A stretch of DNA of 64,000 nt from Chloroflexota bacterium (GCA_018662365.1 JABJGH010000035.1:23040-87039); one strand, 5' to 3'. Positions 15,667 to 45,355 are shown, counted from the stretch's first letter. Numbers and translations: made by a program. The notes: generated by a model not told the origin, from the sequence alone.

Positions 15667-18141
15667 TTATTCTTTCAACGCTGGTTCTTTCTTCTTTTTC
15701 TTAGATTTTACCTTTACGTTAAAAGTCACTTCGCCTTCCTCGTTTACATCCACGATCACCGTGTCCCCCGCCACGAATTCACCTTTCAACAAACGAATGG
15801 AAAGAGGGCTTTCAACGCTCTTTTGCAGCACTCTTTTCATCGGGCGAGCACCAAAAGCAGGATCATAACCTTCTTTGGCAACCCATTCTCTGGCTTTATC
15901 GGTCAATTCCACTTGTAACCCCACATCTGCCAATCGTTCACCGATCTCTTTCATTTGTAATCCAACGATCTCGGTCATTTCCTCCACAGATAATTGTGAG
16001 AAGGTAATGATTTCATCGATTCGGTTTAGAAATTCTGGGCGGAAGGTATCTTTCAGGGCTTTCTCAATCTTTTTATGAGATTCTTTAATCTCTGCATCCC
16101 CTTCGGTTTGCAAGAATCCAAGAGAGCCAGCCTGGCGCACAAATTCGGTACCCAAGTTGCTGGTCATGATCAAAACTGTATTACGGAAATTGACTGTGCG
16201 GCCTTGTCCATCGGTCAAGCGTCCATCATCCAATATTTGCAATAATGAATTCCAAACTTCAGGATGTGCTTTTTCGATCTCATCAAAAAGAATCACTCGG
16301 TAGGGTCGCTGCCGAACGGCTTCGGTTAACTGACCACCTTCTTCATAACCCACATACCCAGGAGGGGCACCAAACAATCGAGACACAGCATGCTGTTCAC
16401 GATATTCACTCATATCGATCCGCACCAAGGCATCTTCGTCATCAAACATAAATTCGGCCAATGCTTTGGCTAATTCGGTCTTACCCACGCCCGATGGACC
16501 AATAAAAATAAAGGAACCGATCGGTCGCTTAGGATCTTTCAACCCCGAGCGAGATCTTCTAATGGCATCCGATACAGCGGAAATCGCTGCAGATTGTCCA
16601 ACGATTCGTTCCTGGATTCGGTTTTCCATGGTTAGTAATTTTTCGGCTTCGGTTTCCATCATTTGGCTCACCGGAATACCTGTCCATTGAGCCACGACTT
16701 CAGCGACATCATTGACGCCAACGATCTCGTCGAGCTCATGTTCTTCTTCCCATTTTCGCCGTTCTGCGTTGTAGTCTTCTTCCATCTGAAGTTTTTTAGT
16801 ACGCATTATTGCTGCTCGTTCATAATCTCTTGAAGTACTCGCTTGTTCTTCTTCAGCCTGTAATCTATCAAGTTCGGTTTTTAATTCTTTCAACTCTTTT
16901 GGCAGTGAGAATAAAGCGACACGTAATTTTGCGGCCGCTTCATCCATCAGATCGATCGCCTTATCGGGCAATCTGCGGTCCGGCAAATAGCGCACTGAAA
17001 ACTTTACGGCCGCTTCTAAGCTCTCATCCGAAATACTCACCTTATGATGGGCTTCGTAGCGATCTCGCAATCCGTGGAGCATCAAGATCGTGTCTTCCTC
17101 ACTTGGCTCTTCAACGAACACCGGTGCGAAACGTCGCTCCAATGCGGAATCCTTTTCAATATATTTTTGATATTCGTCGAGGGTGGTTGCCCCAATCGCT
17201 TGCAGTTCACCCCGTGCCAATGCAGGTTTAAGCATATTAGAAGCATCCATTGCCCCTTGCGCTGCCCCTGCACCTACAACCGTATGCAACTCATCAATGA
17301 ACAAGATGATCTCACCCTGCGCTCGTTGAACTTCTTCAATTGTTGTTTTCAAACGTTCTTCGAACTCACCTCTAAAACGAGAACCAGCGATCATCCCACT
17401 CAAATCCAGGGAAAGCACTCGCTTGCCATTCAAGATTTCGGGTACATCATTGGTATCGATCTTTTGGGCTAATCCTTCCACAATTGCGGTTTTACCCACA
17501 CCAGCTTCACCAATCAACACCGGGTTATTTTTCGTTCGTCGGGAAAGGATCTGGATCACTCGCAAGATCTCTGAATCACGCCCGATCACCGGGTCCAACT
17601 TCCCTTCCCGTGCCATCAAGGTTAGATCACGCGAATATTTTTCTAGAGTTTTATATTTGGTTTCTGCTTGAGGATCGGTAACTCTTTGTCCTCCGCGCAC
17701 TTGCTGCACAGCGTCCAAAGCACGTTCTTTTGTCACCCCTGCGCCTTCCAATAAACGAGCTGCGGGGGTGCTGCGTTCACTCAAAATAGCTAAGAAGATA
17801 TGCTCGGTAGAAATATATTCATCCTTCAATTTATTGGCTTCTTCATTAGCGAGGTCAATTATTCGTTTAACCCGCGGGGTGATAAAGATCTGCCCAGCGC
17901 CACCGCCAAAAATGTTGGCTTTTGGGCTAGTTTTCAAAATATAGTCTAAGCGCTCTGTAAGCGCCTCAGGCTCTACGGTTAAAATTTCTAATAGCTGGGA
18001 GATAATCCCTTGGGGTTGTTCGATCAATGCCAGTAACATATGCTCGGTATCGATCTGATTATGCCCATATCGTTGAATGATCTCGGCAGCTCTTTGGGCG
18101 GCTTCTTGGGCTCGCTCTGTAAAACGGTCAAATCTCATCAT
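15667..18141 (-). CDS. clpC: ClpC-type AAA+ unfoldase (two NBDs, Clp_N repeats, UVR-like middle domain)
   Basis: Duplicated Clp N-domain repeats. Walker A motifs GEAGVGKT and GPSGVGKT. The short middle domain has a UVR-like DYERAAIMR. An LGF tripeptide lies in the position of the ClpP-docking loop. 824 aa. Confidence 0.9.
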
Positions 18142-28196: not shown

Positions 28197-29609
28197 CTAC
28201 TTTGTGTTGTTTATCAATATTTGCCAACGCTGCACCTGATTTTGATTTCCAAAGAATGGCACAACTACCACCAAAAGATCTTTGTCCCCATCAGCATCCA
28301 CATCTATCGGGATCATTGTCCCACGCATTTCTTCTTCTAGTGGAAGCAATTCGAAAATACCTTCACCATTATTTAGCCATAGCAATTGAGTATAGTTTGA
28401 ATCTGGCAAATCATAGAGCATCACAAGATCAATATCTCCATCCAGATCAATATCTGTTTTTTCCATTCTCATAACCCACTTTCCCGCCGTATTTCGATCT
28501 AGAAAATTTTTTGTTGGCGATTCTACAAATTCTTCACCTTCACGATTCATCAACACATGTAAAAAACTCCCTTCATAAAATGGCTTTTCCTTGGTTAAGG
28601 ACAGGATAAGATCTTGGAAGCCATCATTATCGAGGTCAAGTGCAAGAATATCCGCTACTATAAAAAAAGGGTCTGCAGAGGGCAATTCAGTATATTCTGA
28701 ACTAAAGCTACCATCACCTCTGTTCCAGAAAACTGCAGATATTGAAGATGAACTATCTCCCCCCAACACTAGGTCTAAATAATCATCATTATTCAGATCA
28801 ACTAATTCAGACGAGGCCCATTTATAATATCCACTTGCTCCTAATATTTTATTGGTATCAAATTGCCCTGATCCATCATTCTTCATAAGATAAACGCCTG
28901 GAGAAGAATTGCCGCCCCAAACATCCACAACTATCAGATCTATATCCCCATCATTCTCAATATCTCCCAGTGCCATAGAGTGTGAAAAACCCAAAACGGG
29001 GTTATTTAATTGATTACTCTTATCGATGTAACTACCATCTGCTTGCGATAGCAACAGCACATTTTCCTCACCGGGAAAGGGGTCTTTATCAAAACCATGG
29101 CCAACAAAAACCATGTCAGCAACTCCATCCCCATTCAAATCTGCTGATTTTGCATCCCGGCCATGCACTAATGTTGGCGCGCCGGAGGGAAAAATAGTCT
29201 TCGTGCCAACCACGAACCCCTTTTCCCCTTTATTCAGCAACACAGTAAGTTCTGTAGGGTCATTTACAAATCCACTCTCCTGATTGACCCATTTCACCCC
29301 AAAATACAAAAGGTCATCCAATCCATCATGATCTACATCTAGAACTGCATATCCCATTATGAACGAACCACTTGAAAACCCTTCGATTTCTAGCATAGGC
29401 CTATCACTGAGGGTAAAAAGGAACGGCACTGGGGTTTCTGAGGGAATTAATAACGGCGCCACAGTCACTGTAGGCTCAAGAACTGATGTTTTTGTTTCAG
29501 CAGATTCTATAACTGAAATCTCTGCCTTATCCCCGCATGCGCTAATCCCGATCAAAAATAAAATCAAAACTAAAAATCTGGTAACAAATTGTTTTATTGA
29601 CATCTTCAT
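28197..29609 (-). CDS. FG-GAP/VCBS repeat lipoprotein
   Basis: Signal peptide with lipobox LIGISAC. Multiple D.D.DG..D(L/I) FG-GAP/VCBS calcium-binding repeats. Confidence 0.8.
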   Translation of the reverse strand: MKMSIKQFVTRFLVLILFLIGISACGDKAEISVIESAETKTSVLEPTVTVAPLLIPSETPVPFLFTLSDRPMLEIEGFSSGSFIMGYAVLDVDHDGLDDLLYFGVKWVNQESGFVNDPTELTVLLNKGEKGFVVGTKTIFPSGAPTLVHGRDAKSADLNGDGVADMVFVGHGFDKDPFPGEENVLLLSQADGSYIDKSNQLNNPVLGFSHSMALGDIENDGDIDLIVVDVWGGNSSPGVYLMKNDGSGQFDTNKILGASGYYKWASSELVDLNNDDYLDLVLGGDSSSSISAVFWNRGDGSFSSEYTELPSADPFFIVADILALDLDNDGFQDLILSLTKEKPFYEGSFLHVLMNREGEEFVESPTKNFLDRNTAGKWVMRMEKTDIDLDGDIDLVMLYDLPDSNYTQLLWLNNGEGIFELLPLEEEMRGTMIPIDVDADGDKDLLVVVVPFFGNQNQVQRWQILINNTK

Positions 29610-29766
29610 CCTCGCTTTATATAAGGAAGACTACTAGTGAATTCTAGTAGCCTTCCTTGATAAAGCAGATAGTGTTGCGGAGGCGTACAAACACGCTCCC
29701 TACCCAAAGTGTTATCAATGCCTTGATGGTTAGTGATTTATTTCATTATACAATAAAAATGCCTCT

Positions 29767-30186
29767 TTACTCCCCCATAAAACAAATAATACTAAGTTCC
29801 ACCCCAAAGGGATCCTTTAACACCGCCATCCGCACATGCTCATACATCAAGGTGTCGATTGGTGCCTCCCCTACCGCACCCGCCTCAACAAACGCCCCAT
29901 ACAGTTTATCCACATCCTCGGGGTTTTCCACCACAAAAGGCACTTCCACATTTTTCGGGTTCCCATCTTTGCTTGGAAATAAGGTGAACAGGGTGTTACC
30001 AACCGTCCACCCATGTGTAAATTCCCCTTCTACATAGTTTGGAGGGCCAATCACCTTTTCCCAAAAAGCCAATGCCTCCGCATAATCTTCATAATATAGG
30101 GCTACCCCATGGATCCCAACAAAGTTAAACCGCTGTTTCGGTTGGGGGTCTACAAAATACTTTTTGCGGTATTCTTCGTAATCCAT
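29767..30186 (-). CDS. VOC (glyoxalase/bleomycin resistance/dioxygenase) family protein
   Basis: 139 aa. The beta-alpha-beta-beta-beta module pattern (HGVALYYEDY...FW..V.G) is typical of VOC proteins. Confidence 0.7.
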   Translation of the reverse strand: MDYEEYRKKYFVDPQPKQRFNFVGIHGVALYYEDYAEALAFWEKVIGPPNYVEGEFTHGWTVGNTLFTLFPSKDGNPKNVEVPFVVENPEDVDKLYGAFVEAGAVGEAPIDTLMYEHVRMAVLKDPFGVELSIICFMGE

Positions 30187-30210
30187 TATCGCTCCAATAT
30201 TTCTGAGGCT

Positions 30211-32484: not shown

Positions 32485-34077
32485 ATGTCGGACATGAATC
32501 AAAACGACGCCCAAAACGGGCAGAACCTAACGGAAGAAGATCAATTGGAGGCAGAAAACGAAGAACTTTCAATGGAAGAGTTGTTAGCGCAGAGTGATTT
32601 TAGCCTCAACATGCCAAAGCAAGGCCAAGTTCGCCAAGGAATGATTGCGAGTGTTTCTGATGATGAAATTCTTGTAAGCATCGGCACCAAGTCTGAAGGT
32701 GTCATTCCTGGCCGTGAGCTCAGCCAGCTTAGTGATGAAGCTAGAGCCGCCCTTGTTGTTGGCGAAGAGATTACCGTCTTTGTTGTTAGCCCTGAAAGCC
32801 GCCAAGGAACCTTGATGCTTTCGATCCTACGGGCAAAAGAAGAAGATGATTGGAACCAAGCCGAGGAACTATTAGCTTCCAAAGAAGGCTATGAAAGTAC
32901 AATCTCTGGTTTTAACAAAGGTGGACTAATCGTCAATGTTGGATATCTGCGTGGCTTCGTACCTGCATCTCAGGTTAGCCTGACTCGTCGTATGAGCTAT
33001 AAAGGGGATACTCCTGAACAAAGATGGAGCGGAATGGTTGGAGAACCCATTGTGGTTCGCGTGATCGAAGTCGATCGCCAACGCCGCCGCCTAATCATTT
33101 CCGAACGGGCCGCTGCACAAGAATCCCGTGAAACTTTGAAAGAACGCCTGTTAGAAGGTTTGGAAGAAGGCGAGACCCGCAAAGGTCGCGTCACCAGCCT
33201 TGCAGAATTTGGCGCCTTCGTAAATATCAACGGGGCTGATGGCCTCGTCCATCTTTCTGAAATTTCCTGGGAAAGGATTGATCATCCCAGCGAAGTCCTA
33301 GAAGTTGGCCAAGAAGTAGACGTAAAGATCATCAGTATCGATCGAGAACGAAAACGAATCGGTCTCTCCATTCGCCAATTACAGGAAGATCCCTGGAAAG
33401 ATTATTTAGACCAATATGAAGTCGGTCAACTGATCGAAGGCGAAATTACCCGGCTTACAAAATTTGGTGCCTTTGCCAAAATTGATGAAAACCTCGAAGG
33501 CTTGATTCATGTTTCTGAATTAAGTGACCGCCGCATCGAACACCCCAAAGAGGTCTTGGATGTGAGTGACAAAGTTACACTTAGAATTATTAAAGTAGAT
33601 ACCTCACGCCGCCGAATTGGCCTGAGCTTACGCAAAGTCGAATCCATGAAATATTCTGATATGGATTGGGAACTTGCTCTCTCTGAGATCACTGACGAAA
33701 ATGGCGTAGAAAAAGTTGCTGAAGAAGCTGTAGAAGAGGCAACCGCTGAAGTCGAAGAAGCTGTTGAAGAAGCCGTAGAGGTTGTCGAAGAGGTAGTCGC
33801 TGAAGTTAAAGAGGTAGTCGAAGAAGCTGAAGAAGCCACGGAAGAGGCAGTTGTCGAAGAGGCAGCCGCCGAAGTTGAAGAAGCTGTCGAAGAAGCTGAA
33901 GAGGTTGTTGAAGAAGCAGTCGAAGAAGCAGTCGAAGAAGTCGTCGAAGAAGCAACCACCGAAGTTGAAGAAGTTGTCGAAGAAGCTGAAGAGGTTGTTG
34001 AAGAGGCAGCCGCTGAAGTTGAAGAAGCCACGGAAGAAGCAGCCGCTGAAGTCGTTGAAGAAGCGAGCGAAGACTAA
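32485..34077 (+). CDS. rpsA: 30S ribosomal protein S1 with long acidic E/A/V-rich C-terminal extension
   Basis: Four recognisable S1 domains (G.V....GAFV......GL(I/V)H.SE(I/L)S). GGAG RBS. The C-terminal ~125 aa is low-complexity (AEEAVEEA)n. Confidence 0.9.
   Translation: MSDMNQNDAQNGQNLTEEDQLEAENEELSMEELLAQSDFSLNMPKQGQVRQGMIASVSDDEILVSIGTKSEGVIPGRELSQLSDEARAALVVGEEITVFVVSPESRQGTLMLSILRAKEEDDWNQAEELLASKEGYESTISGFNKGGLIVNVGYLRGFVPASQVSLTRRMSYKGDTPEQRWSGMVGEPIVVRVIEVDRQRRRLIISERAAAQESRETLKERLLEGLEEGETRKGRVTSLAEFGAFVNINGADGLVHLSEISWERIDHPSEVLEVGQEVDVKIISIDRERKRIGLSIRQLQEDPWKDYLDQYEVGQLIEGEITRLTKFGAFAKIDENLEGLIHVSELSDRRIEHPKEVLDVSDKVTLRIIKVDTSRRRIGLSLRKVESMKYSDMDWELALSEITDENGVEKVAEEAVEEATAEVEEAVEEAVEVVEEVVAEVKEVVEEAEEATEEAVVEEAAAEVEEAVEEAEEVVEEAVEEAVEEVVEEATTEVEEVVEEAEEVVEEAAAEVEEATEEAAAEVVEEASED
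33700..34070 (+). repeat. In-frame GAA/GAG/GC(N)/GT(N) tandem-repeat region encoding the S1 acidic tail
   Basis: Near-identical ~54-nt blocks occur 90 nt apart at 33868-33921 and 33958-34011, among shorter GAAGAAGC(T/A)GT units. Confidence 0.8.
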
Positions 34078-34302: not shown

Positions 34303-36807
34303 TTGTCTGGTCTAGAAAAGTTTACACAAAGAGCAAGGCGAGTATTGAGCTTAGCCCATCAAGAGGCCGAGCAATTACGCCATAATTATATTGGCACCGA
34401 ACACCTGCTCCTCGGGTTGATCCGCGAAGAAGGTGGCGTTGCCGCAAGAGTTTTACGCGAACTAGGCTTGGAGACCTCCAGAATTACGGAGATCGTCAAA
34501 CGCCTTTCTCAACCGGGTGAAGAAGTAACCGAAAACATCGACCTTTCCCCTGGAACCCAAGAAGTTTTGCAATATGCTATTGAGGAAGCCGAAAAACTGG
34601 GCAACAGCTATGTCAGCACCGAGCATTTATTGCTTGGCCTAATTCGATATACTGATGGCATCGCCCTCAACGTCCTGCGAAAATTAGGGGTCACTCCCGA
34701 ACAGATTCGCCGACAAACCCGAAGAATTCTTCAATCCGGAGCTTCGTCCAGCACCCGCAGTCCACAAAAATCTCGACAAGGTGCCCGAAGTCGTTCTGCA
34801 AAACCTGACCCCAAATCCCCCATGATCGACCAACTAGCCACCGACCTAACATCATTAGCTGAGGAAGGTAAATTGGACCCAGTAATTGGCCGCCAGATGG
34901 AGATCGAACGTGTGATCCAGATTCTGGCCCGCCGTACCAAAAACAACCCGGCACTGATGGGTGAACCGGGTGTAGGTAAGACCGCCATTGTCGAAGGTCT
35001 TGCTCAACGCATCATCGAGGGTGACGTACCCGCCCTCCTTTTGGGCAAACAAGTGCTCCGATTAGATGTCGGCTCTCTAGTTGCTGGAACAATGTACCGT
35101 GGTCAGTTTGAAGAACGACTTAAAAAAGTAATTGACGAATTAAAAATCTCAGGCGCGATCTTATTTATCGATGAGGTCCATATGCTCGTAGGTGCTGGCG
35201 CTGCCGGCTCCTCAGTCGATGCCGCCAATATTCTAAAGCCCGCCCTTTCACGTGGTGAATTACAGGTTATCGGCGCCACCACCCTTGATGAATACCGAAA
35301 ACATATTGAAAGCGACGCCGCCCTCGAACGACGGTTCCAGCCAATCTTGGTTGAAGAGCCCACCGTCGAAGAAACCATTGATATCCTCAAAGGGGTGCGA
35401 AGTGCTTACGAAGACCATCACCGATTAAATATTACCGATGAAGCACTCGAAGCCGCCGCGCAACTTTCTTCCCGTTATGTAACCGAGCGCTTTTTGCCCG
35501 ATAAAGCAATCGACTTGATCGACGAATCTGGCTCCCGCGTCAGAATGTACAAAAGCCCTGCAGCAGATAAAGCCAAAGAATTAACCCTTGAGCTCAAAGA
35601 GCTGAAGGCGAAACAAGTTGCAAAATCAGAAGAAGAAAATACCGAAGAACTTGACGCATTAAACTTGCGCCAAGAGGAAGTTGAAGCCGAACTCGAAAAA
35701 CTTCGCACCAGTTGGGATCGAGAAACTAGCCCATCCGTGACCGAAGAAGACATCGCTGAACTGGTCGCCATGTGGACCGGCATTCCTGTAATGCAGATTG
35801 CTCAAGAAGAAACAGATCGATTACTCCATATGGAAGAAGACCTCGGTAAAGTCATTGTCGGTCAAGAAGAAGCCATCGTCGCCATTTCTAAAGCAGTCAG
35901 ACGAGCCCGTGCTGGCATGAAAGACCCCGCCCGTCCGATTGGCTCCTTTGTATTCCTCGGCCCCACCGGTGTGGGTAAAACAGAGCTAACCAAAGCCCTC
36001 GCCAAACTAATGTTTGGCAGTGAAGAGGCCCTCATCCAATTAGATATGTCTGAATTTATGGAACGTCATAGCGTCAGTCGTCTAGTGGGTGCCCCTCCCG
36101 GCTATGTCGGTTACGAAGAAGCTGGTCAACTTACTGAAGCCCTTCGCCGCCGCCCCTATTCAATCGTCGTCTTTGATGAGATCGAAAAGGCGCATCCCGA
36201 AGCCCATAATATGCTCTTGCAGATCATGGAAGAAGGACATCTCTCCGATGCCCGCGGTCGCAAAGTAGATTTCCGCAATGCCATCATCGTCATGACCTCC
36301 AACGTCGGTGCCGACATGATCATGCGCCAAGGCTCCCTCGGTTTCAACCTCAAAGTGGAGGAAGAGGTCGAAGAAAAAATAGCCTATCGAGACATGCGCA
36401 AGAAATTAACCGAATCACTGCGCAGGGTATTTCGCCCTGAATTCATCAACCGTGTCGATTCCGTGATCGTCTTCCGAGCGCTCACACCCGCAAATATCCA
36501 AGAGATCGTTTCTTTGGAATTGAAAAAGGTGGCTGAACGCTTGGTTGAGCACGACATTCGCCTCCAACCCACCGATGCTGCTGTTGAGTTATTAGCCGAG
36601 CTTGGCTACGACCGAGAATATGGCGCTCGCCCCCTCAAACGCATCATTCAACAAAAGGTTGAAGATGCCCTCTCCGATGCCCTCCTGGGCGGAGAAGTCG
36701 AAGATGGCGATCTGGTCATTCTTGACATTGAAATGGGAGAAGATGCCCCTGACATTATCATCAAACGTGGCGAATCCGAAGAAGAAGAGCTCGGAACCCC
36801 GGCGTAA
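34303..36807 (+). CDS. clpC: ClpC-type AAA+ unfoldase (second paralog)
   Basis: Clp_N repeats, Walker A GEPGVGKT and GPTGVGKT, and an LGF loop. TTG start with an AGGAGG RBS. 834 aa. The middle domain lacks the UVR-like motif seen in the other paralog. Confidence 0.9.
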
Positions 36808-36866
36808 CAAAACAAGTTTAATTCAAAACAGGTCTGGTGAACACCAGACCTGTTTTTTTATCTATC
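36717..36866 (+). repeat. Repeat copy A: native 3' end of clpC (last 27 codons) plus terminator
   Basis: Reference copy. Homologous copies lie at 39124-39205, 40379-40526 and 41111-41228. Confidence 0.9.
36828..36859. terminator. Rho-independent terminator of clpC (bidirectional position)
   Basis: ACAGGTCTGGTG-AA-CACCAGACCTGT followed by T7, with an A-run upstream. The convergent epimerase gene ends at 36905. Confidence 0.85.
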
Positions 36867-36904
36867 TAGGATAACCAGTCATTAAATTGACTAACATGTC
36901 AATA

Positions 36905-37870
36905 TTACGTATTTTTTTTGATTACCTCTGCCTCAATCCATCGATAGGTTTTTTCCAAACCCTCCTCAAGTGGCACCGAGGGCTCCCAGCCAAACAGCTC
37001 GTTGATCAACTTATTATCTGAGTTTCTTCCTCTAACCCCTTCTGGTCCATCAATATGTTTTTTTACAACTTTTGTCCCACTGATTGAAGCCACAATATCT
37101 ACTAAGCCATTGATCGAGATCAATCGATCACTCCCCAGATTCAGTGGCTCGGCATAGGAACTCTTCATTAATTTAGAAATGCCATCCAGGCAGTCCGTCA
37201 CATAAGCAAAGGATCTCGTCTGATTGCCATCTCCCCAAATCTCAACTTCGGGATTATTCGTTAGCTTTGCAATCGCCACTTTTCTACAAATGGCAGCAGG
37301 AACTTTTTCCCTGCCATTCTCCCACTCGCAATTGGGTCCATAAATATTATGAAAACGGGCAATCCTTACGTTGATCCCATGGTCATGCTGATGGTAAAGT
37401 GCGATTTGCTCCATGGTTAATTTTTCCCATCCATAGGCGTCTTGTGGCTGAGCAGGAAAAGCATCCGATTCCTTCAAGGCCATTACCTTTTCCTCCGTTT
37501 GTTTAAATTCAGGGTATACACAAGCCGAAGAAGAGAAGAAGAAGTTTTTCACATTATAGTCAACTGCCGCCTGAATTGTATTGAGATTGATCCGCAAATT
37601 ATTCTGTAATATATGGGCATGATTGAAAGCAATAAACCCCATCCCGCCCATATCTGCCGCCAAAGCATAAACCGTATCGATCCCTTCAGCAGAAATTTTC
37701 GCATTATTCATTTCTCTTAGATCAATTTGCAAAAACTCATCTGCCACCGTATCTTCAAATTTTGGAGTGATGATATCTACCCCCCGCACCCATTTTCCCT
37801 CTTCTTTTAACCTTCTAACCAAATGATGTCCTACAAATCCACCTGCACCCGTAACAAGAATTCTTTCCAT
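36905..37870 (-). CDS. NAD-dependent sugar-nucleotide epimerase, GDP-mannose 3,5-epimerase-like
   Basis: GAGGFVG Rossmann motif. AYGWEK...RFHNIYGP...GREK.PAA.CRK...E(I/M)WGDG.QTRSF closely resembles my memory of the GME signature. Confidence 0.8.
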   Translation of the reverse strand: MERILVTGAGGFVGHHLVRRLKEEGKWVRGVDIITPKFEDTVADEFLQIDLREMNNAKISAEGIDTVYALAADMGGMGFIAFNHAHILQNNLRINLNTIQAAVDYNVKNFFFSSSACVYPEFKQTEEKVMALKESDAFPAQPQDAYGWEKLTMEQIALYHQHDHGINVRIARFHNIYGPNCEWENGREKVPAAICRKVAIAKLTNNPEVEIWGDGNQTRSFAYVTDCLDGISKLMKSSYAEPLNLGSDRLISINGLVDIVASISGTKVVKKHIDGPEGVRGRNSDNKLINELFGWEPSVPLEEGLEKTYRWIEAEVIKKNT

Positions 37871-37916
37871 ATGTATTACTCCATTAAACTATTTCTGAAC
37901 TCAGATTTCAACACGG

Positions 37917-39011
37917 CTACTTTTTAATCTTCTCAATAACCTCTTGATAGACCTCAAGATGCGCTTTTGCGAAAGAATCCCAATTCAAGCTTTCTTTGCT
38001 ATAGGCCAAAGCATTTTTTCCAAGCTGTTTTCGATATGCTTCATCTTTTGCCAATCTCAAAATCGCCTCAGCCAACAAGGCAGGATTTCTTGCGGGAACC
38101 ATTAACCCCGTATGTTCATCTTCCACCACCGCCCCCAAACTGCCCACATCAGTAGCAACCACCGGGTTCTCAAATTCATAGGCAACCCCCACAACCCCCG
38201 TAGAAGTTGCCGAATTATACGGTAAGACAACCATCTTGGCCTTCTGAAAGAATACCGCCCCTTCCTCATCTTCGATATAACGGTTGATTACCTCTATTCG
38301 CTCATGCCCATCCAATTTCCGGTAAGGTTCAAATTTGCCCTTACCGGCGATCACAATTCGCCAATCTGGTAACTCCTCCAAAACTTGAGGTGCAGCCTGT
38401 AATAAGGTCTCAATCCCTTTATGCAGATCGATCCGCCCAAAAAAGAGAATCATGTTTTCTTTCGGGATTTCTTTATCCCGCCATTGCGTAATCGCCGAAT
38501 AAGAACCCTGTTGGATCACATAAGTTTTATCAGCAGCGTAGCCCTTGGATAAAAAATCCTCTTTTAACCAATCCGTTTGCACAATATAAGCATCTGGAAT
38601 TAATCTGACTAACACCTCCGGGATCAAAAAATAAAGCGGAGTTCCCTCATGCGGTGTAGGATCAAACACCGTATAGACTAACGGCAATTTTAAATATTTT
38701 TTGAGCACCCAGGCCACCATCGGGTTCCATTCATGAGAAACCGTGAGATGAGCGATCTCCGCCCCGCATTCCTTTGCGATAGCAACCAACTCTTTATACA
38801 CCCTTGGATTGAACGCATTCAATAAGGTGCCAACCTTCTTTTTTCCAGTCTCTATCTGATAATGTTTGATCTTTGGGTCAAAGCTGCCCAGCGCCACATC
38901 TTTAGAAGTCACCACAGAGACTTCCGCAAATGCACTAAGCGAATTCGTATGCGCTATGCTGTAATGCACCATCGCACCGTGTCTTGAAAGAGCTACGATT
39001 AATATCTTCAT
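37917..39011 (-). CDS. Glycosyltransferase family 4 (GT-B)
   Basis: GRID.HKG ... LPY....STGVVGVAYEF..PVVATDVG C-terminal Glycos_transf_1 pattern. Confidence 0.85.
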   Translation of the reverse strand: MKILIVALSRHGAMVHYSIAHTNSLSAFAEVSVVTSKDVALGSFDPKIKHYQIETGKKKVGTLLNAFNPRVYKELVAIAKECGAEIAHLTVSHEWNPMVAWVLKKYLKLPLVYTVFDPTPHEGTPLYFLIPEVLVRLIPDAYIVQTDWLKEDFLSKGYAADKTYVIQQGSYSAITQWRDKEIPKENMILFFGRIDLHKGIETLLQAAPQVLEELPDWRIVIAGKGKFEPYRKLDGHERIEVINRYIEDEEGAVFFQKAKMVVLPYNSATSTGVVGVAYEFENPVVATDVGSLGAVVEDEHTGLMVPARNPALLAEAILRLAKDEAYRKQLGKNALAYSKESLNWDSFAKAHLEVYQEVIEKIKK

Positions 39012-39123
39012 AATTATTGGATAGTTTACCTTATCGGTGACAACAAGTTTCCAAACCGATTAAGCAGGTTAGGAAACTGTATTATATATATAAAAAGTAA
39101 ATTACAGAAACATCCTTCGCTAA

Positions 39124-39205
39124 ATTGGGGGCCGTATCATCAAACGGGGTGAATCCGAAGAACTGGGAACCCCAGCGTAGACTGATCAGGTTTATTTTAA
39201 AGCAG
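39124..39205 (+). repeat. Repeat copy B: degenerate copy of the clpC 3' end
   Basis: ATCATCAAACGGGGTGAATCCGAAGAACTGGGAACCCCAGCGTAG reads [14 protein letters not shown] in frame (6-nt in-frame deletion relative to clpC). The terminator part is decayed. Confidence 0.8.
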
Positions 39206-39235
39206 GCCGCTCTTAGATTGTTAATAAAAGGGGTA

Positions 39236-40336
39236 TCAATCGTGGTCTTTTTCAAAGATTAACTTAACTTGTTCTAGAATTTGCCTGAATACTTGTTGGA
39301 TATAGGTAATTTTTAACTTCATTGATCCCTTGTCGCCAAGATCAATTTTGAAAAAAGCACCCTTGCGAAGAGAATACCTGCCCCTTTCGATATCACTTTC
39401 CAGGGCAAAATCGTAACAGGAGAGGGTTGGATTTAGCCATAATGCGTATTCTCCAACAGCAGCGGCCCCTTTGAAAAGGAACTGGCAATTTGAAAGCAAA
39501 AGCATGTCGATAAGGACATCCTCTCCTTTTTTATAATTATTCACGTCTTTAAAGTGAAACGGGGCAACATGGTTTTCTGAGCGAATGGCATTGTAATAAG
39601 AAACTCTTCCAGGAAATTCCTTTTCAAAAACTTCAATAAACTGCACTTGGTCCGTTGCCAAGAACAAGTTAAATTCTTTTATTTTATTCTCATCCAGGTG
39701 GTGATGTATTGCTTCGATATAAGTTTCTGGACTGGTTGGTTTTGCATAGGAAAAATCAGTCCCTCGGATATGCACACCGATTGAATAGGTGTTTTCTAAG
39801 TATTTGGCCTGAAAGTCCGAAACCTTTTGCAGGATATGTGGTTTCACTTTGATGTACTTAGCGACATATTTTCGGCCTAAGGCCCGCTTTTCGTTTATCC
39901 ATTTTTCTGGCGACGGTGGTTTTTCTTTTGACCAAAAAGTAGCAATTCTTGCTGGATCTATATGATGCCAATTTAATATGTTTTCTTTTGAATATTCGTG
40001 GATAAAATCTTTGGCTATTTCATCTTGATCAAGCCAATCCTCCACTTGGTCAATTGAAAGTTTGGCAATCGGATAAAAATAATATGCCCATATGTTTTCC
40101 CCCCTCTCTTCATCATAAAAATAAGCCAAGTTTTGCGCGTTATAGTCAACAACTGGAATCCAGTTGTTTTCAATTGCTTTGCGAACACCATTCAAAGCAT
40201 ACGTTATTAATGCCGAAAAACCCGCATTGCTATCGGCATTTTGAATAACGTGAATCTTTTCATATTTATTTTTTATCTCGATCAAGTCCATGGTCATATC
40301 ATCAAAAGGGTTATTGTTTGATTGCCATTCTATCAT
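39236..40336 (-). CDS. Putative glycosyltransferase of the fucosyltransferase superfamily (GT23/NodZ/O-FucT-like)
   Basis: IGVHIRGTD resembles the H.RR.D motif I of alpha-1,2/1,6- and O-fucosyltransferases. A downstream ATD...DMLLLSNC.FLF pattern is also present. Assignment is from motif memory only. Confidence 0.5.
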   Translation of the reverse strand: MIEWQSNNNPFDDMTMDLIEIKNKYEKIHVIQNADSNAGFSALITYALNGVRKAIENNWIPVVDYNAQNLAYFYDEERGENIWAYYFYPIAKLSIDQVEDWLDQDEIAKDFIHEYSKENILNWHHIDPARIATFWSKEKPPSPEKWINEKRALGRKYVAKYIKVKPHILQKVSDFQAKYLENTYSIGVHIRGTDFSYAKPTSPETYIEAIHHHLDENKIKEFNLFLATDQVQFIEVFEKEFPGRVSYYNAIRSENHVAPFHFKDVNNYKKGEDVLIDMLLLSNCQFLFKGAAAVGEYALWLNPTLSCYDFALESDIERGRYSLRKGAFFKIDLGDKGSMKLKITYIQQVFRQILEQVKLIFEKDHD

Positions 40337-40378
40337 TCGACTATATTACTGATTAAATAAACAAATATATTCCATTTT

Positions 40379-40526
40379 CATTCTTGACATTGAAATCGGA
40401 GAAGATGCCCCCGATAGCTTCATCAAACGTGGAGAATCTGAAGAAGAGCTCGGAACCCCAGCGTAAACCGAACAAGTTTAATTCAAAACAGGTCTGGTAT
40501 ATACCAGACCTGTTTTTTTATTTATC
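40379..40526 (+). repeat. Repeat copy C: clpC 3' end (26 codons, frame intact) plus intact terminator hairpin
   Basis: Reads [27 protein letters not shown] (3-nt in-frame deletion). Hairpin ACAGGTCTGGTATATACCAGACCTGT plus T7 at 40488-40519. Confidence 0.9.
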
Positions 40527-40699
40527 GGGGATTTCTAATTCTTCAAACATAACTTAAAGCAAAACCAACTTAATATTACCTATAAGGTCTTTTATATAAT
40601 AAAATGTAGATATTCATTAACTACTATTTCTCAATTTCTTTACGCTCTGCTAGTGAATATATTTTAAAAAGTTTTCAACGATATCAAGGAGTTTTTATA

Positions 40700-41101
40700 A
40701 TGAAGGTTGCTTATGTTTTTGCAATGCCCCGCTCAGCAAGCTATAAACTGGCCCAGATGATTTTGCCCCAGCTAGAAGCAGGAACCCATGGAGTTGAAGT
40801 TGTCGGTATGTTTTTCTTTGATGATAATACCTTTGTGTTACGCGAAGGCGACCCTATTGGCGAAAGATTGTCAAAAGTCGCAAAAGAAAAGGGAATGCTT
40901 TTAATGATCTGTGATATGTGCGCCCTGGAAAGAAATTTAGCCGAAGGGGAACCCAAATGGTGTGCGCCAGATGGCACTGGGCGAACAGAACCGGGTGTTG
41001 TAAAAACACTTAATACGGTTGAGGGTGTAGCAGTTGGCTGTTTCCCAGATCTTTACACAGCTTTAGCTGGAAACATGCCTGATCAAGTTATCACTCTTTA
41101 A
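40700..41101 (+). CDS. DsrE/DsrF-like family protein
   Basis: 133 aa. MKVAYVF... N-terminus and a CDMCALERNL motif typical of DsrE-like sulfur-relay fold proteins. AAGGAG RBS. Confidence 0.5.
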   Translation: MKVAYVFAMPRSASYKLAQMILPQLEAGTHGVEVVGMFFFDDNTFVLREGDPIGERLSKVAKEKGMLLMICDMCALERNLAEGEPKWCAPDGTGRTEPGVVKTLNTVEGVAVGCFPDLYTALAGNMPDQVITL

Positions 41102-41110
41102 TTTGATTAT

Positions 41111-41228
41111 ATTGGGGCCATATCATCAAACGTGGTGAATCCGAAGAAGAAGAGCTGGGAACCCCAGCATAGTTTCAAAATGTTTAATTCAAAACAGGTC
41201 TGGTGTATGCCAGACCCGTTTTTTTTAT
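41111..41228 (+). repeat. Repeat copy D: clpC 3' end (16 codons, frame intact, TAG stop) plus terminator hairpin
   Basis: Reads [16 protein letters not shown]. Hairpin GGTCTGG-TGTATG-CCAGACC plus T8 at about 41196-41227. The 5' flank ATTGGGGCC.TATCATC is shared with copy B. Confidence 0.85.
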
Positions 41229-41302
41229 GGGGGAGGTTCATATCCTCTTCCCCCAGACAGCTCAACTCATTTCCGAACTTTGGTCTGTGCTAAACTACAA
41301 TA

Positions 41303-41830
41303 ATGAAAATAAAATGGGAAAAACTAAGTGAAAAACGCTATAAAAGCGGTTACCGAAAAATGATACGTAGAAAGTATAAACTCCCAAATGGAAAAATTGC
41401 AGACTATGCTATTGTCGATAACGGAAAAGCAGTTTGCGCTGTAGCGTTAACAAAAGAAAAAAAAGTAATACTGCTTAAGATTTATAGACCTGGACCGGAC
41501 AAGATACTTCTAGAACTTCCAGGAGGTCTTATAGAAAGTGAGGATACGCCGGAAAAGGCCATAAGAAGAGAATTCTTGGAAGAGACTGGCTACACTGGAG
41601 ACTTTGAACTAGTATCTACAACTTATGAAGACGCGTACTCCACCATGATTAGATACAATTTCGTTTCCCAAAATTGTGAAAAGGTTCAAGAACCTGAGCT
41701 TGAAGACGATGAGGGCGGTGCAGAAACAATACTACTATCTATTGACGAATTTAAAAGACATCTTAAAAGTGGTGAATTAACAGATCCTGAAACTGGTTAT
41801 ATTGGATTGTTACATCTAAATTTACTATAA
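41303..41830 (+). CDS. NUDIX hydrolase
   Basis: NUDIX box GGLIESEDTPEKAIRREFLEETGY. Confidence 0.9.
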   Translation: MKIKWEKLSEKRYKSGYRKMIRRKYKLPNGKIADYAIVDNGKAVCAVALTKEKKVILLKIYRPGPDKILLELPGGLIESEDTPEKAIRREFLEETGYTGDFELVSTTYEDAYSTMIRYNFVSQNCEKVQEPELEDDEGGAETILLSIDEFKRHLKSGELTDPETGYIGLLHLNLL

Positions 41831-42107
41831 ACGTTCAAATAGCGTACAGCACTCCCACCCCTTTCCCAATAAATTTCCCCACATCAAACCCTGATACCCA
41901 TCTTAAAATTCAGTACAAATGCCTATATTGAGAGGATTTGTTTTTCTGTATAATGGAATAGGCGTAATGATATATTTGTGGAGGAATTTAAGTGTAATTT
42001 ACGGAGAATATAAATACCGTTTTTGATAAGAGTAATTATCAGTAACTATTCATAAATTTATATGTAGGATTTATTTAGTGCTCCCTTTAAAAAATGTCTA
42101 ATTTAGG

Positions 42108-43646
42108 ATGAAGAAAATGAAAAATAATAAAGCCAATTTTCTATTATTATTCCTCATCTTTTGTTTTGGAATGTTTTTAAGAACCTATAGGCTGAACAAC
42201 ACCTTTCAAAGCTCTGACAATGCATTTCTAGCAACAAAGATTTTGACTAATCCTGGCTATCGATGGATGATTTTTGAGAATTATGGGGTTTTAATAAATT
42301 TCTACGTGAAAGTTTTTACAGGTTTTTTGTCATTATTGGGGATTCCATTAAATGAGTTTTGGTTTAAATTACCTATTGCAATTATTGGCAGCGCGCAAAT
42401 AATTTTATCTTTTGGTTTTTTAAATTGGTTAATGAAGAATAGAGCTTCCGCATTATTAGGCGCAGGTTTAATATCAATTCTTCCAATCCATGTAATGCAA
42501 TCAAGGTATTTATGGGGTTATGAGGTTTTAGGAACTTTTTTCTTAACAATAGCAATATGGGTACTATTGCTTTATTTTGAAAACCCAACCAAAAAGAATG
42601 GTTTTTTTGTATCTTTATCAATAGGGTTTTACAGCATATCCCATGGCTACATACTTCCCGGAAGTATCACACTATTTATCATAATGATGATCTCAGTTGG
42701 GAGAGATGATGGAATAATAAACCGTTTGCGAAAAGTTATTCATCATATTATTAATTCGAAAATTTATCTCATCCCCCTCCTTTTTCTCCCATTAACGATT
42801 TTCCCCCTCATTCATGCACTTTCAAAAGACACAAGATTAGGATTTTATGTTTTTGATTATCTTTGTGACTTTTTATCTGGTTTGGGGGCAGGATTCGCAA
42901 TATTGGTTGGATGGGGAATATTAAAATTCTTTATCTCAAACCATACAAAGGTCCATACTGAATGGCTCTTTTTGATAGTATCATTTATATATTCCGCACC
43001 ACTGATTTTTGGTGCCTCCCCTGGAACAACAGTTGCTGAAGGGTATTTTTTAATTAGTACATATTTCTTATTGTTGTTTGTAATCCTAATTCTAAATAGA
43101 TATATAAAACAAACTAGACTGGTTTTTCGGGTTTTATTTTTTTCGTCGGTATTATTGACCACCTGGGGAATTTTCGAATCGGTTTTACTAAGAGATCAGG
43201 GGTTTGACCCATCTTTTATAAAAGCCAATCGGGGAATGGCAGCTATTGATCCAGGTTCTAAAGCTGCTGCATATGAAATTCGCACGGAACTTGGCAATGA
43301 TATAAAAATCCTAGCTCTCCATGGAGCTCTAGAGCCACCAAATATGGAATATTATTTTGGGAAAACAGAAATTTCTTTTTTCGATTTAACTTCAGAATTA
43401 AAAACTTTAGCCTATCAAAAATACATAAACCTTGTTGATGTTGTTGTTGTAGGAAAAGACTTCTTAACAACTATGAGTATTGATCCCAATTTCTATCAAT
43501 GGATTGAAATTTCATCAGAAAATGTACCCCAAATGTGGGTTTTTTTGAGGAATACTTTTGAAAAACATTCCATTTCAATTTACACCGAGGAATTTAATTC
43601 AAAATATGATTTGTTATATCCAAAATATTCCAACCTTTTAGATTAA
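42108..43646 (+). CDS. Polytopic membrane protein, GT-C fold glycosyltransferase-like (ArnT/PMT/GT39-like)
   Basis: About 11 predicted TM segments over the first ~370 aa, then a soluble C-terminal domain. This is the GT-C architecture. Very AT-rich. Family assignment is tentative. Confidence 0.5.
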   Translation: MKKMKNNKANFLLLFLIFCFGMFLRTYRLNNTFQSSDNAFLATKILTNPGYRWMIFENYGVLINFYVKVFTGFLSLLGIPLNEFWFKLPIAIIGSAQIILSFGFLNWLMKNRASALLGAGLISILPIHVMQSRYLWGYEVLGTFFLTIAIWVLLLYFENPTKKNGFFVSLSIGFYSISHGYILPGSITLFIIMMISVGRDDGIINRLRKVIHHIINSKIYLIPLLFLPLTIFPLIHALSKDTRLGFYVFDYLCDFLSGLGAGFAILVGWGILKFFISNHTKVHTEWLFLIVSFIYSAPLIFGASPGTTVAEGYFLISTYFLLLFVILILNRYIKQTRLVFRVLFFSSVLLTTWGIFESVLLRDQGFDPSFIKANRGMAAIDPGSKAAAYEIRTELGNDIKILALHGALEPPNMEYYFGKTEISFFDLTSELKTLAYQKYINLVDVVVVGKDFLTTMSIDPNFYQWIEISSENVPQMWVFLRNTFEKHSISIYTEEFNSKYDLLYPKYSNLLD

Positions 43647-43783
43647 TTTATAATTATATAAAGATTCTAAATTCTCATGGCAATTAAAATTCATTTGCGA
43701 ATATGGCTAATTTTCAGGATATGAACCCTAGCCGGTGAGGTCGGGTGTTCAAATCCTCTCGTCATAACTTCCCCACTTCCCCC

Positions 43784-43812
43784 TTGACCTTATAGAACAT
43801 CTGTGCTACAAT
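43784..43812 (+). promoter_or_regulatory. Sigma70-like promoter P1 upstream of radA (TTGACC-17 nt-TACAAT)
   Basis: Hexamers at 43784-43789 and 43807-43812. Confidence 0.55.
43795..43806 (+). promoter_or_regulatory. LexA (Cheo/SOS) box-like sequence GAACATCTGTGC within the P1 spacer
   Basis: One mismatch to the GAAC-N4-GTTC core. Confidence 0.4.
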
Positions 43813-43960: not shown

Positions 43961-45355
43961 ATGGCCAAAGCACGCACAGTCTATATCTGCCAAGAATGTG
44001 GGCGTCAGTCCACCAAAGAAATGGGGCGTTGCCCCCAATGCGGCGAATACAACACCATGGTCGGCGAAGTCGTCGAAGCAAAAAGTACCGTTAAAAAAAC
44101 AGCCCCCCGTGGCCTCAGTGGTCGCTCCACTCCCCGCAAACTATCCCAGATCACCGGCGATATGGAAGAACGCATGCCCCTCTCCATCGGCGAGTTCGCC
44201 CGCGTCCTGGGCGGCGGCATCGTCCACGGCTCCGTCGTCCTCATCGGTGGCGATCCCGGCATCGGCAAATCCACCCTCCTCCTTCAAGCCGCCATGGCCC
44301 TCGCCAAAAACAAAAAAGTGCTCTATGTCTCTGGCGAAGAATCCGAACACCAGATCAAAATGCGCGCCGTCCGCCTCACCCAGGGAGAAAAAGAGTCCAC
44401 ACCTTTGCCCGATAATCTACTCCTCGTTACCGAAACCAACCTAGAAGTCATCTTAGATCATGTCGCTTCAGTTGCCCCGCCAGTCTTAATCGTCGACTCC
44501 ATCCAAACCACCTACACTTCCGATTCCGACTCTTCCGCCGGGTCGGTCACCCAAGTCCGAGAATGCTCGTCCCGCCTGCGTGAACTCGCCAAGAACAACG
44601 GCATTGCCGTCTTCCTCATCGGTCACGTCACCAAAGAAGGCGCCATCGCCGGCCCCCGCGTCCTCGAGCACATCGTCGATACCGTTCTCTATCTCGAGGG
44701 AGATCGTTTCGGCGCATACCGCTTATTACGCTCCGTCAAAAATCGCTTTGGCGCTACCGCCGAAGTGGGCGTCTTCGAAATGCAAGAACGCGGCATGGTC
44801 GAAGTCAGCAACCCCTCCGAAGCCTTCTTAGCCGAGCGCATGGTCAACGCCCCCGGCTCCGCCATTGCCGTCACCATGGAAGGCACTCGCCCCCTTTTGG
44901 TTGAAGTCCAGGGACTCACCAGTCCCACCTCCTTTGGCAATCCCCGCCGCACCGCCAATGGCGTAGATTTCAATCGACTCCTCCTCATCTCCGCAGTGCT
45001 CACCCGCCGCATCGGTGTCCGCCTCTCCGATCAAGACGCCTTCGTCAATGTCATCGGCGGCCTGAAAATTGGCGAGCCAGCCGCAGACCTTGCCGTAGCC
45101 GTCGCCATCGCTTCTTCAATGAAAGACCAAGCCGTCAAAGCAGACACCGTCCTCATCGGTGAAGTGGGTCTCTCCGGCGAATTGCGCCAGGTCAGCCAAA
45201 TGCCCGCCCGCCTGCACGAAGCCGCCAAATTGGGCTTCAAAACCGCCATCGTCCCCAAACGCCTGCGCAAGGGAGAACCCTGGCCCAAAGAAATCCAGAT
45301 CATCGAAGCGCGTACCCTTAGCCAAGCATTAGACAAGGCCTTATTAAAAGAATAA
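43961..45355 (+). CDS. radA: DNA repair protein RadA/Sms
   Basis: N-terminal zinc ribbon C.ECG....K..G.CP.CG, Walker A GDPGIGKST, the KNRFG motif and a C-terminal Lon-like domain. 464 aa. Confidence 0.95.
   Translation: MAKARTVYICQECGRQSTKEMGRCPQCGEYNTMVGEVVEAKSTVKKTAPRGLSGRSTPRKLSQITGDMEERMPLSIGEFARVLGGGIVHGSVVLIGGDPGIGKSTLLLQAAMALAKNKKVLYVSGEESEHQIKMRAVRLTQGEKESTPLPDNLLLVTETNLEVILDHVASVAPPVLIVDSIQTTYTSDSDSSAGSVTQVRECSSRLRELAKNNGIAVFLIGHVTKEGAIAGPRVLEHIVDTVLYLEGDRFGAYRLLRSVKNRFGATAEVGVFEMQERGMVEVSNPSEAFLAERMVNAPGSAIAVTMEGTRPLLVEVQGLTSPTSFGNPRRTANGVDFNRLLLISAVLTRRIGVRLSDQDAFVNVIGGLKIGEPAADLAVAVAIASSMKDQAVKADTVLIGEVGLSGELRQVSQMPARLHEAAKLGFKTAIVPKRLRKGEPWPKEIQIIEARTLSQALDKALLKE

Follow-up and report, generated by a model that had tools for sequence, protein, structure and literature searches.

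Repeated clpC 3′ ends around small gene cassettes in an uncultured member of the Anaerolineae: a probable record of serial site-specific integration

How does the 3′ end of one gene come to stand four times in a single chromosomal interval, with different genes between the copies? The question is raised by the interval from clpC to radA in a 64-kb stretch of DNA from a Chloroflexota bacterium (GCA_018662365.1, JABJGH010000035.1:23040-87039), which was analyzed over its whole length and is referred to below as the window. The host lineage belongs to the Anaerolineae, is uncultured, and is known from metagenome-assembled genomes only. The last ~50 to 90 nucleotides (nt) of the essential gene clpC and the terminator that follows them are present in four copies (A to D), all in direct orientation, around three cassettes of 0.6 to 2.3 kb (Table 1). 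This layout, including the places of the four copies and the peptides that they encode, had been described in a reading of the sequence alone and is confirmed here. That reading also took the layout as the footprint of repeated insertion into the clpC 3′ end, in which each newcomer brings in a new end and displaces the old one, and the synonymous divergence of the copies and an independent array in a sister species bear it out. The interval is probably, if with considerable room for doubt, a fossil in which small cassettes without an integrase gene were added one after another by site-specific integration (tandem accretion), with a recombinase that would have been supplied in trans.

Copies of the clpC 3′ end

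A 27-nt core pattern, allowed up to 3 mismatches, has exactly four matches in the 64 kb, which are copies A to D; shuffled sequences are expected to yield none. The terminator stem, GGTCTGG/CCAGACC, is likewise confined in the window to copies A, C, and D and, as noted in the earlier reading, it is kept in these three copies while their loops differ. The hairpin of copy A has a stability of -14.6 kcal/mol (z = -6.2). Copy B has no terminator stem, its homology to clpC ending just 5′ of it. Copy C starts with TCATTCTTGAC.

Pairwise identity among the four copies is 83 to 91%. In the 17-codon tail that is common to all of them, 8 codons vary, and in 7 of these the change is synonymous or replaces one stop codon with another; for random single-base changes in the same tail, the synonymous share would be ~24%. 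The two indels found among the copies, of 3 nt and 6 nt, are both in frame and fall within a GAA/GAG run, and the acidic run of the encoded tails accordingly reads EE, EEE, or EEEE. The earlier statement that the copies differ only by in-frame deletions and synonymous changes is correct for the indels and for these 7 codons but not for copy C, which has an I>F replacement inside the common tail (the eighth variable codon) and M>I and I>S replacements upstream of it. The C-terminal tail of ClpC is poorly conserved.

Because the changes in the window copies are almost wholly synonymous and the indels are in frame, the copies appear to have diverged while coding, and each of them must, judging from this pattern, once have formed the functional end of a clpC gene, be it in a different lineage or on an element that restored the gene. 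Very little change has accumulated after displacement, which suggests that the insertions are recent relative to the ~15% DNA divergence from the sister species.

A second Clp/Hsp100 ATPase with the ClpC domain set (824 amino acids [aa]) is encoded on the minus strand at 15667-18141, 16 kb upstream of clpC. Its 3′ end lies outside the repeat family.

Table 1. Features of the clpC-radA interval, with positions counted from the first nucleotide of the window
Feature	Position	Strand	Properties and basis
clpC	34303-36807	+	Open reading frame (ORF), 834 aa; Pfam Clp_N, AAA, AAA_2, ClpB_D2-small; full-length target gene
Copy A	36716-36866	+	Native working clpC end and bidirectional terminator at 36825-36856
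Cassette 1	36867-39135		2.27 kb, 42% GC; two genes
SDR epimerase resembling GDP-fucose synthase (cassette 1)	36905-37870	-	Pfam, NCBIfam
GT4 glycosyltransferase (cassette 1)	37917-39011	-	Pfam, NCBIfam
Copy B	39136-39206	+	Displaced clpC end; 6-nt in-frame deletion
Cassette 2	39207-40377		1.17 kb, 37% GC; one gene
NodZ-like (fucosyltransferase family) gene (cassette 2)	39236-40336	-	Pfam NodZ, 29.1 bits versus cutoff of 28.3
Copy C	40378-40526	+	Longest displaced clpC end and terminator at 40485-40516
Cassette 3	40527-41121		0.6 kb, 39% GC; one gene
SaoD/DsrE family gene (cassette 3)	40700-41101	+	NCBIfam NF040913, 206 bits versus cutoff of 152
Copy D	41122-41228	+	Displaced clpC end and terminator at 41197-41216
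tRNA-Pro-like T-arm and acceptor-like fragment, GGAGGTTCATATCCTCT-TCCCCCAG	41229-41258	+	Left direct repeat of segment 4, attL-like
Segment 4 (beyond copy D)	41259-43718		2.46 kb, 33% GC; two genes
NUDIX hydrolase (segment 4)	41303-41830	+	Pfam
512-aa polytopic membrane protein, PMT/GT-C glycosyltransferase kind (segment 4)	42108-43646	+	
tRNA-Pro 3′-half-like att remnant, CCCTAGCCGGTG-AGGTCGGGTGTTCAAATCCTCT	43719-43759	+	Right direct repeat of segment 4, attR-like
radA	43961-45355	+	Conserved right border of the variable interval

A second array in the sister species

The sister species (SWCD01023897.1; loci L090 and L095) has ClpC and RadA proteins that are, respectively, 96% and 95% identical to those of the window. 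Its clpC-radA interval spans 11.8 kb and contains four further clpC-end copies, sB, sC, sD, and sE, of which sB, sD, and sE keep the tail and sC keeps the upstream part of the clpC end only. The sister copies are decayed, with many nonsynonymous changes and one lost stop codon. The cargo includes a beta-helix/sortase-domain protein, an acyltransferase-3 together with a DUF4256 protein, an SdrD_B-type protein, and a 201-aa protein, and none of the interval proteins of the window and the sister are related to each other. The two genomes cease to be homologous directly behind the clpC terminator, and their homology returns ~50 nt before the start of radA.

In more distant relatives, such repeats are absent. 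At ~80% ClpC identity, the interval contains a GT2 gene and PMT-type genes; at 65 to 72% identity, clpC and radA are separated by a gap of 100 to 243 nt or by msrA and dus. Among 83 testable clpC loci across bacteria, clear extra copies are found in that of the sister only, with one weak match each in L039 and L061. No tRNA gene was found at the clpC-radA locus in the relatives. The core pattern has no matches in the Joint Genome Institute (JGI) metagenomes, a collection that does not include the array of this species, and none in viral contigs. The clpC-radA interval is hypervariable, and the repeat arrays are a feature of the genus. None of the three outcomes that would have refuted the sequence-only reading was observed: the interval varies among relatives, the repeat is not a generic one, and the array is not an artifact.

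In a further locus, L097, whose RadA is 90% identical to that of the window, a gene for a PycTM (Pycsar effector-like) protein is located just upstream of radA, at 1128-1646 on the minus strand. The same hot spot thus holds a defense-type gene in another member of the group.

Common boundaries and flanks of unrelated cassettes

Copies B and D have the same first base (ATCATCAAACG), and both are preceded by a similar flank that does not come from clpC, ATTGGGG(G)CCRT. This flank forms the right end of cassette 1 (AAATTGGGGGCCGT, 39116-39135) and of cassette 3 (TATATTGGGGCCAT, 41102-41121). On the opposite side, copies A and C have a common end point 7 nt beyond the T-run. Under a Campbell-type model as well as under an att-type one, each boundary of a copy is determined by the cassette that adjoins it on that side. 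Since the starts of B and D and the ends of A and C coincide, cassettes 1 and 3, with unrelated cargo, rebuild the same attP-like junction, in which the flank is followed by the part of the clpC end that extends from ATCATC to the end of the terminator. The pattern of single-nucleotide polymorphisms is compatible with a crossover point that would lie, for both cassettes, between the tail codons GGN and CTN.

The sister array has its own version of such a border, as copies sD and sE have a common left boundary and a common 38-nt flank (95% identity, z = 10.8). The left boundary of copy C falls at approximately the same clpC position as the junction of sD and sE. A search of viral contigs with the B/D flank pattern gave 6 matches, which are ascribed to chance, the likeness ending at the edge of the pattern.

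Remnants of tRNA-Pro-type att sites

Beyond copy D, there is a fourth bounded segment, flanked by two remnants of tRNA-Pro-type attachment (att) sites; the segment and the remnants had both been overlooked in the sequence-only reading. The left remnant, directly 3′ of copy D, is the weaker one, with ~72% identity to the tRNA-Pro 3′ end as counted by eye. The right remnant is located between the membrane-protein gene and radA and lacks the acceptor strand. It matches the flank of sister copy sD in 34 of 45 positions (z = 8.1) and is 86% identical over 43 nt to the metagenome contig L104. The direct repeat around the NUDIX and GT-C genes, formed by 41232-41248 and 43743-43759, has 2 matches in the 64 kb versus 0.19 expected.

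A degenerate pattern derived from the window remnant and the sD and sE flanks is found in two JGI metagenome contigs, L102 and L104, both of which read CTAGTCCGTG-AGGTCGGAGGTTCAAATCCTCTCACCCCGAC. From AGGTCGGAGG on, this sequence is the 3′ end of tRNA-Pro, with an exact 23-nt match at the 3′ end of tRNA-Pro genes called by ARAGORN in many viral contigs. The alignment of L102, L104, the window remnant, and both sister flanks reveals a common non-tRNA stretch, followed by the variable loop and the T-arm. After CCTC, the sequences part: L102 and L104 continue into the tRNA acceptor strand, the window continues into unrelated sequence, and the sister continues into clpC (GATGCTGAAATGG). In the sister, the left sides of sD and sE are fused to the tRNA-Pro 3′-half-like sequence, with the junction in the T-loop/T-stem, between TTCAA and ATCCTC. 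As native clpC reads GTCATCCTCGAT at this position, the hybrid junction falls at a short common ATCCTC. In L102, a gene for a tyrosine integrase (Pfam Phage_integrase, 29.6 bits) and one for a Cro/C1 regulator are located 2.5 kb from the tRNA-Pro-like fragment.

The interval itself contains neither an integrase gene nor a tRNA-Pro gene, the only tRNA gene of the window being tRNA-Gln at 350-421. Searches with Rfam and ARAGORN find no tRNA, tmRNA, or other RNA family in the clpC-radA interval of either the window or the sister. There is no decayed fifth clpC copy upstream of radA (z = -0.5), and viral contigs contain no match to either of two variants of the tRNA-like flank pattern. The match to tRNA-Pro genes and the alignment identify the sD/sE flank as a tRNA-Pro 3′ half, and two other assignments are rejected in favor of this one: a plain hairpin and, suggested by a 10-bit Rfam match, a tmRNA 3′ end.

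Of the sigma-70-like promoter matches in the interval, the best (TTGACC-17-TACAAT, with a TG) is located at 43784-43812, just 3′ of the right tRNA-Pro-like remnant and ~150 nt upstream of radA. To judge from its position, radA may be driven from sequence at the edge of the island.

Cargo of the interval

The Pfam scans and the precomputed Pfam assignments place no gene for an integrase, a recombinase, or a transposase in the clpC-radA interval, in agreement with the sequence-only reading. The cassette genes are found on both strands. A BLAST comparison of the whole array with plasmids and phages gave matches limited to the SaoD/DsrE gene and a fragment of the epimerase gene.

The 512-aa membrane protein of segment 4 has no Pfam match of its own. 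Among 45 scanned members of its family (itself and 44 homologues), 18 match PMT and 10 match PMT_2, and because of these matches the protein is predicted to be a GT-C type glycosyltransferase. The SaoD/DsrE gene of cassette 3 is elsewhere an ordinary, highly conserved chromosomal gene, including in Promineofilaceae, and in the search for the source of this cassette only the ORF gave matches. The encoded protein is 80 to 89% identical to proteins labeled as coming from Calditrichota, Bacteroidota, Poribacteria, and Promineifilaceae, and its DNA matches Thermus megaplasmids; this conservation across phyla is unusually high for a 133-aa protein.

The GC content is 50% in clpC, 58% in radA, and 43% in the window as a whole. 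The segments had been described as AT-rich, which is true relative to clpC and radA; measured against the window, composition sets apart segments 2 to 4 but not segment 1, at 42%. The view of the locus as a glycosylation hot spot is also justified in part only, as segment 3 carries SaoD/DsrE and the sister cargo consists of surface proteins and an acyltransferase.

Uniformity within the species

The 23 longest contigs encoding an identical ClpC, which come from different samples and assemblers, all have the same gene order (23/23), and look-ups through the SaoD/DsrE and NUDIX proteins return the same array layout. The array is not an assembly artifact; its copies are too diverged for assembly collapse. 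Look-ups through ClpC, RadA, SaoD, and NUDIX reveal no polymorphism within the species except for an insertion of an IS3-family insertion sequence (IS), and no variants of the ClpC tail are found among the species contigs read. Cassette variation is seen between species only. Nothing indicates present-day mobility, and the array reads as a relic that is recent yet fixed in this species.

The IS3-family element (HTH_Tnp_1 and rve) is present at 41830 in strains with an identical RadA (loci L002 to L005), in which the homology to the window breaks at exactly this position, just after the NUDIX stop codon. In L002, the sequence beyond the element belongs to a different genome region (CN_hydrolase, DoxX, RecD2, and LytR), reflecting either a rearrangement or a chimeric join via the multicopy IS. 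One Logan contig (L008, 72 kb) starts inside the terminator of copy C, at position 40487 of the window, where copies A and C share no 31-mer. This start is due either to low coverage or to an unseen variant path at the copy C terminator.

Proposed mechanism and its alternatives

If the array arose by serial site-specific integration, the clpC-radA interval would be an additive genomic island. The incoming unit would be a small circular cassette with one or two genes and a single recombination site, which mimics the last 17 to 30 codons of clpC, its stop codon, and its terminator. Recombination within the mimic stretch would leave clpC intact with a cassette-borne end and would push the former end downstream as a partial copy. 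Segment 3 would have arrived first, followed by segment 2 and then by segment 1, and copy D would be the original resident end. Since the cassettes encode no recombinase, the enzyme is expected to have acted in trans, and it would most likely have been a tyrosine integrase of the kind that targets the T-loop of tRNA genes. For cassette 3, the predicted circle junction is TATATTGGGGCCAT joined to ATCATCAAACG, the terminator, and TATTTATCGGGG. If an integrase of this kind acted in trans, related islands at tRNA-Pro genes might end in CCCTRGYCCGYG-AGGTC.

Several lines of evidence favor a site-specific process. Unrelated cassettes have common, exact boundaries and common element-side flanks. One of the units is flanked by att remnants of an integrase-associated, tRNA-targeting family, and such remnants are also joined to clpC copies at the T-loop. 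The same footprint is documented for the ssrA islands of Dehalococcoides, a member of the same phylum (PMC3146451). Finally, stretches of 70 to 150 nt at 83 to 91% identity are a poor substrate for RecA.

The last point bears on the main rival explanation. Circles, or fragments from related strains, that carry a cassette along with homology to the clpC end could enter the resident end or a displaced copy by a single RecA-dependent (Campbell-type) crossover, and recombination between direct copies could again release units, much as in IS26 translocatable units but with a gene end as the repeat. Such a crossover yields the same topology as site-specific integration does and accounts just as well for the four copies, for the restoration of the gene, and for the displacement of its former ends. 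No integrase is needed, in line with the absence of one in cis; the variable left and right boundaries of the copies fit homology blocks of unequal length; and the synonymous-only divergence fits ends derived from the clpC genes of related lineages. This explanation is possible but appears rather unlikely, and not merely because the homology is so short and diverged. Random circularization does not predict that unrelated cassettes have common boundaries and non-clpC flanks (copies B and D; sD and sE), and the fusion of tRNA-Pro-type remnants to clpC copies exactly at the T-loop/T-stem points to a crossover of the integrase type. Besides, it offers no account of how fresh cargo and the homology block would come to be linked.

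Site-specific integration has its own difficulties, and the following observations weigh against it. Neither the checked window ORFs of at least 120 aa nor ~36 kb of the sister contig (~100 kb from two genomes) revealed a recombinase, and 7 or 8 units that all lack a recombinase would be unusual if each had once been autonomous. No circular junction, empty site, or cassette polymorphism is seen among the species contigs read. No cassette is common to the window, the sister, or any of the fetched loci, and none was found in a second array. The likeness of the B and D flanks is modest (z = 3.8), being reached by 0.8% of shuffles without correction for 28 comparisons. The copies have at least 3 different left boundaries in clpC, and sC does not fit the simple scheme; because one fixed crossover leaves some junctions unexplained, several families of elements or later rearrangements are needed. 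Lastly, the link to an integrase comes from a single 6-kb, taxonomically unassigned metagenome contig, L102.

A bolder version of integration in trans is that the genus runs an integron-like platform for cassette capture, with its entry site in the coding end of an essential gene, with sites of 70 to 150 nt that mimic the gene end, and with a chromosomal recombinase, encoded elsewhere, that serves all cassettes. This must be considered doubtful. If true, the tRNA-Pro::clpC hybrid junctions would record the switch of a tRNA-targeting integrase family to a protein-coding target.

The remaining explanations fare much worse. The copies, as direct repeats within 4.5 kb, might have arisen by local duplication of the clpC end, with subsequent divergence in place and insertion of unrelated genes between them by other means. 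However, drift in place predicts mostly nonsynonymous changes and frameshifts, as in the older copies of the sister, not the almost wholly synonymous changes of the window copies, and the sister has none of the window cassettes, which makes this explanation very improbable. Even less credible is a role of the displaced copies as a store of alternative C-terminal tails of ClpC for recombinational switching. The reading frames and stop codons are indeed kept and the acidic run differs in length, but these differences are trivial and affect a poorly conserved tail, there is no invertase or recombinase nearby, the sister copies are decayed to the point that one has lost its stop codon, and the species contigs read show no tail variants. 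The repeat does contain a strong palindromic terminator, but a generic terminator-containing element of the repetitive extragenic palindromic type, or an assembly artifact, can practically be dismissed, given that the core and the terminator occur within the 64 kb at this locus only (4 core and 3 terminator sites versus 0 expected), that the copies contain clpC coding sequence, and that the layout is common to at least 23 contigs while a second species has an array of its own.

Other features of the window

A second spot that varies between the two species precedes the Mg-chelatase/VWA genes, ~5 kb upstream of clpC (window positions ~28197-30200 versus 2700-5672 in L090). It contains an FG-GAP protein in the window and an Rce1-like protein, a 72-aa ORF, and a GT28/UDPGT glycosyltransferase in the sister.

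The gene for ribosomal protein S1 (32485-34077) encodes a C-terminal tail of ~150 aa (33600-34077) in which E, A, and V account for nearly all residues and form loose repeats (EEAVEEA). The DNA encoding this tail contains 28-nt repeats, and the S1 protein of the sister is ~50 aa shorter.

An AbiJ-type abortive-infection gene (AbiJ_NTD3 and Abi_C) is located at 11803-12702 on the minus strand and adjoins a 289-aa ORF without a Pfam match.

Comparison with known systems

Integrons and clusters of attC sites lacking integrases (CALINs) are arrays of cassettes with one or two genes, one site per cassette, and one entry point, and they can exist without an adjacent integrase. The clpC array resembles them in its small cassettes with a single site each, its one chromosomal entry point, and the lack of an adjacent integrase. 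It is nevertheless not an integron. There is no integrase gene intI, the repeats are a gene end with a plain terminator and not attC-type imperfect palindromes with R″ and R′ boxes, the cassette genes are found in both orientations, each with an upstream region of its own, and the entry site is inside the coding end of a gene.

In IS26 translocatable units and pdif modules, cargo is separated by direct copies of one sequence. Here, too, repeats separate the cargo, and units could in principle enter or leave via the repeats. However, the clpC repeat contains no transposase and is not a Xer site: inspection by eye reveals no dif-like core (ATAA-6-TTATG).

A closer parallel is provided by cis-mobilizable elements (CIMEs), units with att sites but without integration genes that are added in tandem to the end of their target gene (PMC5704250). 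The example cited in that review is the streptococcal ICESt1/CIME at the fda 3′ end (Pavlovic 2004; Bellanger 2011). As in CIMEs, the units lack genes for integration and transfer, the att sites come from the 3′ end of a protein-coding gene, the target remains intact, and newcomers appear to enter the att site that holds the gene end, which results in tandem arrays. Direct repeats of the target 3′ end flank the units (copies A to D with cassettes 1 to 3 and copies sB to sE with four other units), the target is restored by incoming sequence (clpC is full length, and the copies keep the frame, the stop codon, and the terminator), and a conserved element-side flank adjoins the repeat, modestly in B and D and over 38 nt in sD and sE. 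Unlike in CIMEs, every unit here is devoid of an integrase, and no integrative and conjugative element, integrative and mobilizable element, or prophage is present as a partner. The units are far smaller (0.6 to 2.5 kb, with one or two genes), the repeat is long (70 to 150 nt) and includes the stop codon and the terminator, and the host belongs to the uncultured Anaerolineae.

The ssrA islands of Dehalococcoides are arranged in tandem downstream of a single-copy essential gene and bounded by direct repeats of its 3′ end, with a conserved element-side motif just upstream of each repeat. Some of their units have no integration module and have been proposed to be CIMEs, and the region beyond the last repeat seems fixed (PMC3146451). 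All these features have counterparts in the clpC array, which also comes from the phylum Chloroflexota. The differences are in the target (tmRNA with a 20-bp repeat versus a protein-coding end with 70 to 150 nt), in the recombinase (16 of the Dehalococcoides islands carry a module with a CcrB-like serine recombinase [DsiB], none of which is found here), and in the cargo, which in Dehalococcoides consists of reductive dehalogenases.

Additive flexible genomic islands of Alteromonas are hot spots for cassettes that can be recognized by partial copies of the target (PMC4898812), and in the tycheposons of Prochlorococcus newer elements push older ones into the island and leave partial tRNAs behind (bioRxiv 10.1101/2020.12.28.424599). 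The clpC array has in common with these systems a cassette hot spot, partial target copies downstream, the displacement of older units, and cargo related to the niche and the cell surface. Those systems, however, mainly use tRNA or tmRNA targets, their populations include integrase-bearing elements, and their cassettes recur nearly identical across genomes, whereas no common cassette is found here. The remnants with a tRNA-Pro 3′ half and an element-side flank, present in both the window and the sister, resemble tRNA-Pro elements with a tyrosine integrase of the L102 type.

The sequence-only reading had called the arrangement an undescribed way of building a hot spot. This claim does not hold, as tandem accretion of att-flanked units without integrases has already been described (PMC5704250, PMC3146451, PMC4898812, bioRxiv 10.1101/2020.12.28.424599). 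The footprint is known; what sets the array apart is the use of the clpC coding end as the target, the long restored block with a stop codon and a terminator, the very small size of the cassettes, the lack of an integrase at the site, and the hybrid tRNA-Pro::clpC junctions. The literature search found no paper that connects clpC, attB, an integrase, and a genomic island. The locus documents an additive island in a poorly known, uncultured lineage, the Anaerolineae, with the coding end of clpC in place of a tRNA gene as the target. It is also a marker of cell-surface variation (fucosylation and GT-C) between close relatives in anaerobic communities, and its tRNA-Pro att::clpC hybrid junctions provide a testable example of how a family of integrative elements might gain a new target.

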